From IMG/VR virus record IMGVR_UViG_2548876856_000015: a stretch of 8,645 nucleotides of DNA. One strand, given 5' to 3'. This stretch comes from a virus. Lineage: Duplodnaviria > Heunggongvirae > Uroviricota > Caudoviricetes. Shown here piece after piece: positions 6,001 through 8,645 of this stretch. Made by a program: the position numbers. Every line of letters begins with the position of its first letter. Position 1 is the stretch's first letter.

Positions 6001-8645
6001 GTCAAAATCTGACGCATCAAAATCTGACCCGTCAAAATTTGATGCGTCGAAATCTGGCAAAAAAGCGGGTTTTCACCCGTCAGAATCTGGCGGGGATCCG
6101 TCAGTAAAATCAAAACATGATCCGTCAGATAAAAAAACTTCTCGTCCGGACGCTTCGCAACCGGACACGCAGACGGCTGAACAGGATTTTTTAACTCGCC
6201 ATCCTGATGCGGTTGTATTCAGCCCTAAAAAGCGCCAGTGGGGGACGCAGGATGATTTGACCTGCGCACAGTGGCTCTGGAAAAAAATCATCGCCCTGTA
6301 CGAGCAGGCTGCCGAATGTGACGGCGAGGTGGTTCGTCCCAAAGAACCGAACTGGACAGCCTGGGCAAACGAAATTCGCCTGATGTGTGTGCAGGATGGT
6401 CGTACTCACAAACAAATCTGCGAGATGTACAGCCGCGTCAGCCGCGATCCGTTCTGGTGCCGTAACGTGCTCAGCCCGTCGAAGCTGCGGGAAAAATGGG
6501 ATGAGCTTTCCCTGCGCTTATCGCCGTCCGTAAGCACGTACACCGAAAAACGCGAAGACCCGTACTTCAAATCCAGTTACGACAATGTGGACTACAGCCA
6601 GATCCCGGCAGGATTCAGGGGGTGATCATGAGTCTGTTAAATGACGTTCAGAAATTCATTGAAGCCCATCCGGGGTGTACTTCCGGAGACATTGCGGATG
6701 CTTTTGCTGGTTACTCACGGCAGCGCGTTCTGCAGTCAGCAAGCAAGTTACGTCAGAGTGGACGTGTGGCTCACCGTTGTGAAGGAGATACACGCAGACA
6801 TTTCCCGCGCCTGACTGAGAGAGCGCAGGAGCCGAAACCACAACCAGTTCGTGAAACCAGACCTGTGCGTAATTTCTATGTCGGCACTAACGATCCCCGG
6901 GTGATTTTGTGCCTGACCCGCCAGGCGGAAGAACTGGAGTCCAGGGGCTTATACCGTCGTGCTGCAACCGTGTGGATGGCGGCATTCCGTGAAAGCCACT
7001 CCCAGCCAGAACGAAACAATTTTCTGGCGCGTCGTGAGCGGTGCTTACGGAAAAGCAGCAAGCGCGCTGCATCGGGTGAAGAGTGGTATCTGTCAGGGAA
7101 TTACGTGGGGGCTTAATGACGACGTTAACTCAATGCCAGCAGCAGGTGCTGGATATGCTGATTTCTTATCAGAAAGAACGTGGCTTCCCACCAACCAATC
7201 AGGAGGTGGCAACCATGCTGGGATACCGTTCGGTGAATGCAGCGGTGGAGCATCTTCGTGCTCTGGAGAAAAAAGGCGTCATCACGATAAAGCGTGGCGT
7301 GGCCCGGGGGATAACGCTTCATACCGCGGTGAAGGACGACGACAGCGAGGCGGTCGGGATTATCCGCTCACTGCTTGCCGGTGAGGAAAACGCCAGGCTG
7401 CGTGCAGCCCACTGGTTACATGAGAGGGGCCTGAAAGTATGAAGCTTATTCTGCCTTTTCCGCCCAGCGTGAACACGTACTGGCGACACCCCAACAAAGG
7501 GGCGTTTGCTGGTAAGAGCCTGATAAGCACGGCGGGGCGAAAATTCCAGAGCGCGGCGTGCGCAGCAATAGTTGAGCAGTTACGTCGTCTGCCGAAACCA
7601 ACGTCGGCACCTGCTGCAGTGGAGATCGTGTTGTTTCCACCGGATAACCGGATCCGCGATCTGGACAACTATAACAAGGCGCTGTTTGACGCCCTGACCC
7701 ACGCGGGTGTGTGGGAAGACGACAGTCAGGTGAAAAGAATGCTGGTGGAGTGGGGACCGGTTATCCCGGAAGGGAAGGTCGAGATCACTATCAGTAAGTA
7801 CGAGAAAACGGCGGGTGCAGCCGCCTGATTAAGAGGAGAAACGAAGTATGAATAATCTGATGGTCATTGATGGTATTGAAGTTCGTCGTGATGCTTATGG
7901 TCGTTACAGCCTGAACGATCTGCACAGGGCTGCCGGTTCTCTGGATAAGCATAAGCCTGCATTCTGGCTCCGCAATGAGCAAACTGAACGTTTAATAAGC
8001 GAGTTGCAGATTTGCAACTCGGTCAATATAGAGCCAGTTAACGTTATTCGTGGCGGAAATAACCAGGGGACGTATGTCTGCAAAGAACTGGTGTATGCCT
8101 ATGCAATGTGGATCAGCCCGTCATTCCATCTGAAGGTGATCCGTACTTTCGATATGGTAACCAGCGCACCGGAAAAATTATCCGGGCAGGCTGCTGACAA
8201 GATGCAGGCAGGTGTGATTCTGCTGGACTTTATGCGCAGGGAGTTAAACCTGTCTAACTCTTCAGTGCTTGGTGCCTGTCAGAAGCTTCAGGAGGCTGTT
8301 GGCTTACCGAATCTGGCACCGCGCTATGCCATTGATGCTCCTGCTGATGCACTCGATGGCTCAAGCCGCCCTACGCTATCATTGAGTGCACTGCTGAAGC
8401 AGTATGGTATCCGCCTTACGGCTAATCAGGCATATCACCAGATGGTGAAGCTGGGGATCGTCGAACAGCGCGAACGATACAGCCGTACCGCGATTAACAA
8501 CATCAAAAAATTCTGGTCGCTGACAGCGAAAGGCTGCATGTTCGGCAAGAACATCACCAGTCCCGCAAATCCGCGCGAGACGCAGCCGCACTTTTTCGAA
8601 TCCCGATTCCCTGAGCTGTTAAAGCTGCTCGATACCGTTCATTGA

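Follow-up and report, generated by a model that had tools for sequence, protein, structure and literature searches.

The LexA-like gene and its genomic context

The DNA analyzed here, 8,645 nucleotides (nt) of a Caudoviricetes virus (IMG/VR record IMGVR_UViG_2548876856_000015; "the window" denotes this whole stretch), carries a LexA-like gene whose 108-residue product combines a LexA N-terminal domain with a C-terminal tail (Table 1). The window represents the integrase-to-nin segment of an SfII-like lambdoid prophage, and Shigella phage SfII matches it at 97.7% identity over 77% of its length. Its genes are arranged in the order int and xis (minus strand), cI, cro, a CII/CP76-like gene, DUF4222, an O-like replication gene, a PerC-like gene, the LexA-like gene, rusA and a KilA-N gene. 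An initial annotation had placed the LexA-like gene in the rightward early operon, translationally coupled to both neighbours. Gene order and the two junctions, TAATG and ATGA, which can be read directly in the sequence, bear this out, and translating the open reading frame (ORF) returns exactly the product quoted there. A GGGGG run located 4–5 nt upstream of the TAATG junction is a possible ribosome-binding site. An upstream GTG start at 7083 was dismissed and the overlapping ORFs 6959–7384 (+), 7125–7322 (−) and 7360–7668 (−) were set aside, because the ATG is where homologues begin and residue 1 is where the Pfam model sets in. A promoter scan of the window revealed no sigma-70-like site on the plus strand from cro to the LexA-like gene, and it is therefore simplest to assume that the gene is expressed from the early rightward transcript.

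Table 1. Positions of the LexA-like gene, its parts and its neighbours in the window
Feature	Position	Strand	Basis or remark
S24-type cI	3745–4437	−	Pfam PF00717, E=6e-19
Perfect SOS box TACTGTTTTTATATACAGTA	4209–4228		within cI
O-like replication gene	5684–6625		
PerC-family protein, 164 aa, upstream neighbour	6622–7116	+	Pfam PF06069, E=7.8e-9; PHROG 1324
TAATG	7114–7118	+	PerC-like stop overlaps LexA-like start by one base
LexA-like gene (LexA N-terminal domain and C-terminal tail, 108 aa)	7116–7442	+	stop TGA 7440–7442; ORF, Pfam, PHROG
Winged helix-turn-helix, residues 1–68	7116–7319	+	helices 6–22, 28–35, 40–52; wing strands 56–59, 65–68; AlphaFold, Foldseek
Recognition-helix segment S39-V40-N41-A42-A43-V44-E45-H46-L47	7230–7256	+	alignments
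Two-helix tail, residues 74–102 (predicted helices 74–87, 93–102)	7335–7421	+	AlphaFold, family alignments
Ala88-Gly89, probable vestige of LexA cleavage site Ala84-Gly85	7377–7382	+	HMMER, BLASTP alignments
ATGA	7439–7442	+	rusA start overlaps LexA-like stop
rusA, RusA Holliday-junction resolvase, 129 aa, downstream neighbour	7439–7828	+	Pfam PF05866, E=1.2e-14; PHROG 34; synteny
KilA-N gene	from 7848		after rusA

A LexA-type winged helix without the protease domain

The homology of the N-terminal part of the protein to the LexA DNA-binding domain greatly exceeds what chance could produce. The Pfam model LexA_DNA_bind (PF01726) covers residues 1–65 with its positions 1–65 of 65 (69 bits; cut-off, 23.7; E=2.9e-19), a phmmer search against the PDB pairs residues 2–69 with residues 2–69 of the E. 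coli LexA N-terminal domain 1lea (E=7e-16), and BLASTP against E. coli LexA yields 39/90 identities over LexA residues 1–86 (43%, E=1e-21). These matches substantiate the alignment over about 67 residues from which the LexA relationship had first been proposed. Because no indel occurs before residue 70, LexA numbering can be used directly. The AlphaFold model has a mean predicted local distance difference test score (pLDDT) of 79.6, reaching about 80–85 in the winged-helix part, and Foldseek places it onto the LexA-DNA complex 3jso with a root-mean-square deviation of 1.6 Å over 67–68 columns at 50–51% identity (1.6–1.8 Å for 3jso and 1lea).

E. coli LexA contacts the bases of its operator through S39, N41, A42, E44 and E45 (PMC3091678; the contact role of Glu44 is taken from the residue list in that paper). 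The window protein keeps four of the five (S39, N41, A42, E45), carries Val in place of Glu44 and shows an additional P40V exchange, so that the comparison of RSVNAAVEHL with RSPNAAEEHL in the initial annotation was correct. Throughout the relatives that share the tail, hereafter the tailed family, S39, R64, G65 and I66 are invariant and N41 nearly so. Since S39 and N41 are contact residues of LexA and the wing R64-G65-I66 is near-invariant as well, DNA binding as such is likely retained.

The catalytic half of LexA is missing, as had been stated. In Pfam searches the 108-residue protein has no match to the S24 peptidase domain (PF00717); it lacks Ser119/Lys156, and with 70.8 bits it stays under the cut-off of 110.95 of the NCBIfam LexA model TIGR00498. 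In LexA, the C-terminal domain is responsible for dimerization as well as for RecA*-stimulated self-cleavage. Given this established biology and the missing S24 domain, the protein should be RecA-insensitive and, in agreement with the original proposal, could not be inactivated in the way LexA is.

A conserved tail probably derived in part from the LexA linker

We next consider the C-terminal 40 residues. The initial annotation had denied the protein an Ala-Gly site, which is incorrect: Ala88-Gly89-Glu90 is present (nt 7377–7385), and both HMMER and BLASTP align it with Ala84-Gly85-Glu86 of LexA. Judged by these alignments, Ala88-Gly89 appears to be a vestige of the LexA self-cleavage site. 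Its surroundings are predicted by AlphaFold to be helical, where LexA has a strand-loop, the protease is absent in cis, and the dipeptide is not conserved in more distant members of the tailed family. The register of Ala-Gly-Glu on the cleavage site suggests that the LexA linker and cleavage region gave rise to the first tail helix; overall, the protein resembles a LexA truncated shortly after the cleavage site and extended by about 19 residues.

While the linker (residues 69–73) is modelled with low confidence, residues 81–100 reach a pLDDT of 87–89. L86, L87, A93, A97, L101, E103, R104 and V108 are invariant among close homologues, and A97 and L101 show no exchange even in relatives as distant as 39% identity. 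We distinguish four clades by their loci, namely the window clade (near-identical loci), a sister clade of Enterobacter type (about 45% identity), a third clade and a fourth clade of Cedecea/Klebsiella type. The pairwise ratio of nonsynonymous to synonymous substitution rates (dN/dS) amounts to 0.04 for the window clade and to 0.20 for the Enterobacter-type clade, with 0.10 and 0.19, respectively, for the tail, which is as constrained as the domain; as the pairs are non-independent, these figures indicate constraint and are no formal tests. In PDB and viral fold searches no module matched the tail, every significant match being to the winged helix only.

LexA dimerizes via the domain that is missing here, and other S24-less LexA-domain proteins in the databases carry tandem domains; on these grounds we infer that the tail provides bivalency by dimerization, a role that the initial annotation had suggested and that the conservation and selection of the tail would fit. 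The tandem proteins in question (P0139, P0140, P0143, P0149, P0128, P0130) are 140–350 residues long and have two LexA_DNA_bind domains and no S24 match. They seem to represent another route to a bivalent, uncleavable LexA-type binder, and duplication of the domain fits a need for two heads.

The C-termini of the family are small or hydrophobic, the alignment showing -LKV, -VKV, -GSAA, -GAHA, -GATA, -GVSL and -GAQL. Some of them resemble ClpXP-type degrons such as the VAA terminus that cleavage leaves on the N-terminal fragment of LexA, and control of turnover through these ends is possible.

A widespread and selected family

Among 5426 complete E. coli genomes, 2233 carry the gene at an identity of at least 95%, some of them in as many as 4 copies, and so do 50 phage records including SfII, SfIV, mEp460 and Stx2c-converting phages; intact copies are found in 2223 E. 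coli genomes. A protein search adds SfV, phage cdtI and Stx2a phages. SfII gp44, SfV orf42, mEp460 gp46 and the copies in cdtI and the Stx2a/Stx2c phages are 96–100% identical to the window protein. Beyond these, an exhaustive profile search retrieved full-length relatives with the tail down to about 39% identity, from Cronobacter, Kosakonia, Enterobacter, Cedecea, Klebsiella and Salmonella, with closer ones in Citrobacter and Hafnia. The family spans at least eight genera, and all hosts named by the sources are Enterobacterales.

The gene is real, selected and widespread, and its family is already annotated in thousands of genomes. Residues 1–108 match positions 1–106 of 106 of PHROG 362 (E=1.4e-59), and current labels include "LexA family transcriptional regulator", "LexA DNA binding domain protein", "LexA-like protein", "transcriptional repressor" and "hypothetical". 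The phage proteins listed under PHROG 362 or with PF01726 only are the window protein's own family, their names deriving from homology alone. Short proteins consisting of the LexA domain are common in phage structure databases, and a survey of Stx phages lists pham 237 (pfam01726, "LexA family transcriptional regulator") in 15 phages (PMC8136144). In the literature we found catalogue mentions only and no functional study of the enterobacterial tailed family. Together with the characterization of GIL01 gp6, a phage homologue restricted to the LexA DNA-binding domain (PMC6182141), this makes the gene less novel than first implied. What sets it apart are the conserved tail and the coupling to rusA.

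The recognition helix diverges within the family

Having established that the DNA-binding scaffold is conserved, we turned to the positions that differ from LexA. Glu44 occurs in 0/198 distinct tailed sequences, where position 44 is Val, Ala, Phe, Thr, Leu or Tyr, and entire subclades carry Ala, Leu or Ser in place of Glu45. The resulting variants include AAAEHV, AAVAHV, AAVEHV, AVALHL and AAASHL, the first three of them among close relatives within the Enterobacter-type clade. Full-length LexA-type sequences from the same search, in contrast, keep NAAEEHL or NAAEDHL. The named hosts, all Enterobacterales, are expected to have a single LexA recognition helix and a single SOS box in common. Had the protein been selected to read this box, its positions 44 and 45 should not vary, and the observed variation despite the shared host box therefore disfavours canonical SOS-box specificity across the family. 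The comparative data thus lean against SOS-box binding as the family function. Furthermore, positions 44 and 45 are off the LexA state throughout the family and differ between as well as within clades, which suggests an operator different from the host SOS box. A conserved scaffold with drifting specificity positions is the pattern that a phage-specific regulator would leave, and by analogy it matches GIL01 gp6.

A candidate RecA-insensitive regulator with its own operator

The reading that we favour, with about half of our confidence behind it, is that of a RecA-insensitive, tail-dimerized DNA-binding regulator of the early operon which, like GIL01 gp6, has an operator of its own derived from that of LexA. 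Its message would be the rightward early (pR/nin-type) transcript, with translation coupled to that of the PerC-like gene on one side and of rusA on the other. The LexA linker and cleavage region has been remodelled into the conserved two-helix tail, which would replace the S24 domain as dimerization (or partner-binding) element. The dimer would bind a palindromic operator and stay bound once RecA* has destroyed LexA and CI. This operator would be LexA-box-derived, yet not simply the host SOS box, and through it the protein would control a phage (or limited host) target as lytic development proceeds.

GIL01 gp6, from a Bacillus thuringiensis tectivirus, is a truncated homologue of LexA. It has been shown experimentally to bind GaCACAnnTGTGaC, a palindrome of its own, in place of LexA boxes, and to activate the late promoter P3 (PMC6182141). 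By analogy, it may be taken as a precedent for both a diverged operator and RecA-independent action. Both proteins are phage-encoded LexA winged helices that lack S24, are RecA-insensitive and belong to an early operon, gp6 being compared here by its description. They differ in that gp6 ends about 14 residues past the helix-turn-helix and has no helical tail, whereas the window protein has a conserved tail of 40 residues, and in that gp6 comes from a Gram-positive tectivirus, whereas the window protein is encoded in a lambdoid nin-type region and its gene is fused to rusA. Moreover, gp6 reads GaCACAnnTGTGaC via Lys38, while the aligned position 38 of the window protein is Arg, and palindromes of the GaCACAnnTGTGaC type are not enriched in three clades. 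E. coli LexA itself (1lea, 1jhh, 3jso) shares with the window protein the fold, S39, N41, A42, E45, the wing R64-G65-I66 and the aligned Ala-Gly-Glu; the differences are the missing S24 domain with the score under the TIGR00498 cut-off, the P40V and E44V exchanges and the remodelling of the linker to a two-helix tail.

Several points weigh against the favoured reading. We searched for palindrome enrichment with all 5-nt half-sites and spacers of 0–12 nt in about 250–350 kb of non-redundant sequence from three clades, and no operator candidate emerged, the enriched palindromes being terminator hairpins, A/T runs and ordinary SOS boxes. The AlphaFold model is of the monomer only, and the tail matches no solved dimerization module. 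In addition, of all recognition helices in the family those of the window clade come closest to LexA, with four of the five contact residues, and canonical SOS-box binding by the window protein itself would still be compatible with its sequence. Finally, the variation at positions 44 and 45 could reflect relaxed constraint rather than a change in specificity. The inverted repeats within the window are the cI/cro operators, ori iterons and the SOS box; none lies near the LexA-like gene.

SOS boxes near the LexA-like gene

An unlikely alternative, though one with concrete points in its favour, is the model of the initial annotation, an uncleavable SOS-box binder. Such a protein would read CTGT-N8-ACAG in the way LexA does and re-repress host SOS genes and LexA-controlled phage promoters during lytic growth. 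Its targets would be the box inside cI as well as the antirepressor, dinI and methylase boxes of relatives. Retention of S39, N41, A42 and E45 and the 50–51% identity to E. coli LexA over the fold speak for such activity, and the free LexA N-terminal fragment, which is removed by ClpXP, keeps residual repressor activity. The prophages are also rich in good boxes, located in cI and, in relatives, in the gap between rusA and KilA-N or at a methylase gene. The LexA-like gene of one clade lies downstream of a unit of SOS box and dinI on the same strand.

The box inside cI, which the initial annotation had reported, is indeed present and perfect (TACTGTTTTTATATACAGTA). It falls into the linker-coding part of the S24-type cI (codons N-T-V-Y-K-N-S), and related cI alleles keep CTGT/ACAG with a changed spacer (TACTGTTTTTACATACAGTA, Tyr to Cys). 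A simple promoter scan detected no sigma-70-like promoter at this box; LexA might act there on an internal or antisense transcript, or as a roadblock. The box is shared by 25/70 related loci that reach far enough upstream, whereas the other 45/70 window-clade loci have no good SOS box within 4.6 kb upstream, and no good box occurs anywhere in the locus in 73/80 loci of the sister clade. These counts argue against SOS-box binding as the protein's role, and on the same counts we rejected the cI-internal box as an obligate partner of the LexA-like gene.

In some near-identical relatives (L050 at about 974–993, also L067, L069 and L077), an SOS box TACTGTATTTATGAACAGTG follows rusA at a distance of about 45 nt and precedes another KilA-N-type gene by about 100 nt, which suggests an antirepressor-like gene under LexA control directly downstream of the LexA-like/rusA pair; the corresponding gap of the window measures 19 nt and has no SOS box. 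Some relatives carry an SOS box at a DNA methylase gene. Regions of the Cedecea/Klebsiella type are strongly enriched in SOS boxes, with 12 distinct contexts against 0.23 expected, and in this clade the box of a dinI-like gene is located about 0.5 kb upstream of the LexA-like gene. One such locus (L185, about 4322–5327) aligns on one strand an SOS box, the dinI-like gene (Pfam DinI, E=8e-22), a 101-residue ORF and the LexA-like gene. However, the subclade beside the dinI box is the one that has lost both Glu44 and Glu45 (SSPNAVALHL, 14/16 loci), so that nearness to an SOS box does not track a LexA-like helix. The family-wide loss of Glu44 and the diversification of the helix, although all named hosts are Enterobacterales, likewise argue against reading of the host box, and the example of GIL01 gp6 shows that binding to LexA boxes is not to be taken for granted in a truncated homologue.

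Linkage to rusA

The constant partner of the LexA-like gene is rusA. It is found downstream with the same 4-nt ATGA overlap in 81/81 loci of the window clade, 80/80 of the Enterobacter-type clade and 2/2 of the third clade (163/163), whereas the upstream neighbour varies. Among the 81 near-identical window-clade loci, dam precedes with an ATGA junction in 55 and perC with TAATG in 26, and in mEp390 a replication gene takes this place. In SfII (L001, 8103–8756) and the 55/81 loci, a 654-bp dam methylase gene is positioned between the PerC-like and LexA-like genes; the window and the 26/81 loci are without dam, and TAATG joins the two genes.

Such pairing would fit an accessory role in recombination or replication instead of one as a transcription factor: comparable to NinH, the protein would bind or bend DNA in partnership with the co-translated RusA (or with replication). 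The NinH protein of lambda is a nin-region mimic of the host Fis protein, a small early-operon product that acts as a homodimer (PMC7166090), and thereby provides a nin-region example of a truncated host DNA-binding-protein mimic. Like the window protein, it corresponds to the DNA-binding part of a global DNA-binding protein of the host; unlike it, NinH has a Fis-type helix-turn-helix, a fold unrelated to that of LexA, and is encoded beside rap (ninG) rather than rusA, the analogy being one of logic and not of homology. We nevertheless regard an accessory role as quite improbable. RusA homologues below about 80% identity (HK022, HK75 and ST64T types) are not preceded by a LexA-like gene, and in the fourth clade rusA follows in 17/40 loci, while in the other 23/40 the LexA-like gene is followed by a small ORF and a DUF968 gene and lacks rusA. 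Linkage by descent explains the pairing, RusA being about 80% conserved where the LexA-like proteins are about 45% identical. The LexA-like gene appears to pair with one RusA lineage, for which inheritance as a compact module accounts as well as a functional partnership would. As a general rule, a dependence on RusA was rejected because the more distant rusA genes have no LexA-like partner.

Two further explanations carry far less weight. That the protein acts not on DNA but as a decoy, titrating LexA or occupying RecA* via its vestigial cleavage region, could appeal to the alignment of Ala88-Gly89-Glu90 with the cleavage site; it is very improbable, since Ala-Gly is not conserved in the family, the region is predicted to be helical and not strand-loop, LexA dimerizes and meets RecA* through precisely the domain that is missing, and the family invariants sit on the DNA-binding surface. 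We give next to no credence to a decaying, functionless remnant of a captured lexA, which the truncation and the vestigial site might suggest, because dN/dS values of 0.04 and 0.20 with an equally constrained tail, intact copies in more than two thousand E. coli genomes, a spread over at least eight genera and maintained translational coupling all contradict decay.

Other features of the window

In this half of the window, the sole promoter-like match on the plus strand is located at 7829–7856 (TTAAGA-16-AATAAT), in the 19-nt gap and overlapping the KilA-N start; it may be due to chance, as such matches are in total fewer than expected from shuffled sequence. Phages of SfII-like type carry a Q antiterminator gene downstream. 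Within the O-like gene, inverted and direct repeats made up of GTCAAAATCTGAC-like units cluster at 5986–6048; they match a repetitive DPSKSDASKS protein segment and resemble origin iterons within a replication gene, as in lambda.

Biological implications

Should RecA-independent DNA binding by the protein hold true, 2233 of the 5426 complete E. coli genomes searched, together with Shigella serotype-converting and Stx2-converting phages, would encode such a regulator. The surprise is modest, the family being annotated and having a characterized precedent in GIL01 gp6, although a role as SOS shut-off factor, if borne out, would make it greater. That an uncleavable LexA mimic, encoded in about 40% of E. 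coli genomes, shuts off the SOS response and acts in the competition between prophages is decidedly unlikely in our judgement. If true, vacated SOS boxes would be re-occupied after derepression of the protein's own prophage, silencing recA, sulA and umuDC together with LexA-controlled antirepressor, dinI and methylase genes of its own and co-resident prophages, and both the SOS response and the induction hierarchies of polylysogens would be reshaped. The identity of the operator would distinguish tampering with the host SOS response, affecting Stx production, mutagenesis and the induction of rival prophages, from the tuning of phage promoters, and would also show how the head of a host repressor gains a new oligomerization element.

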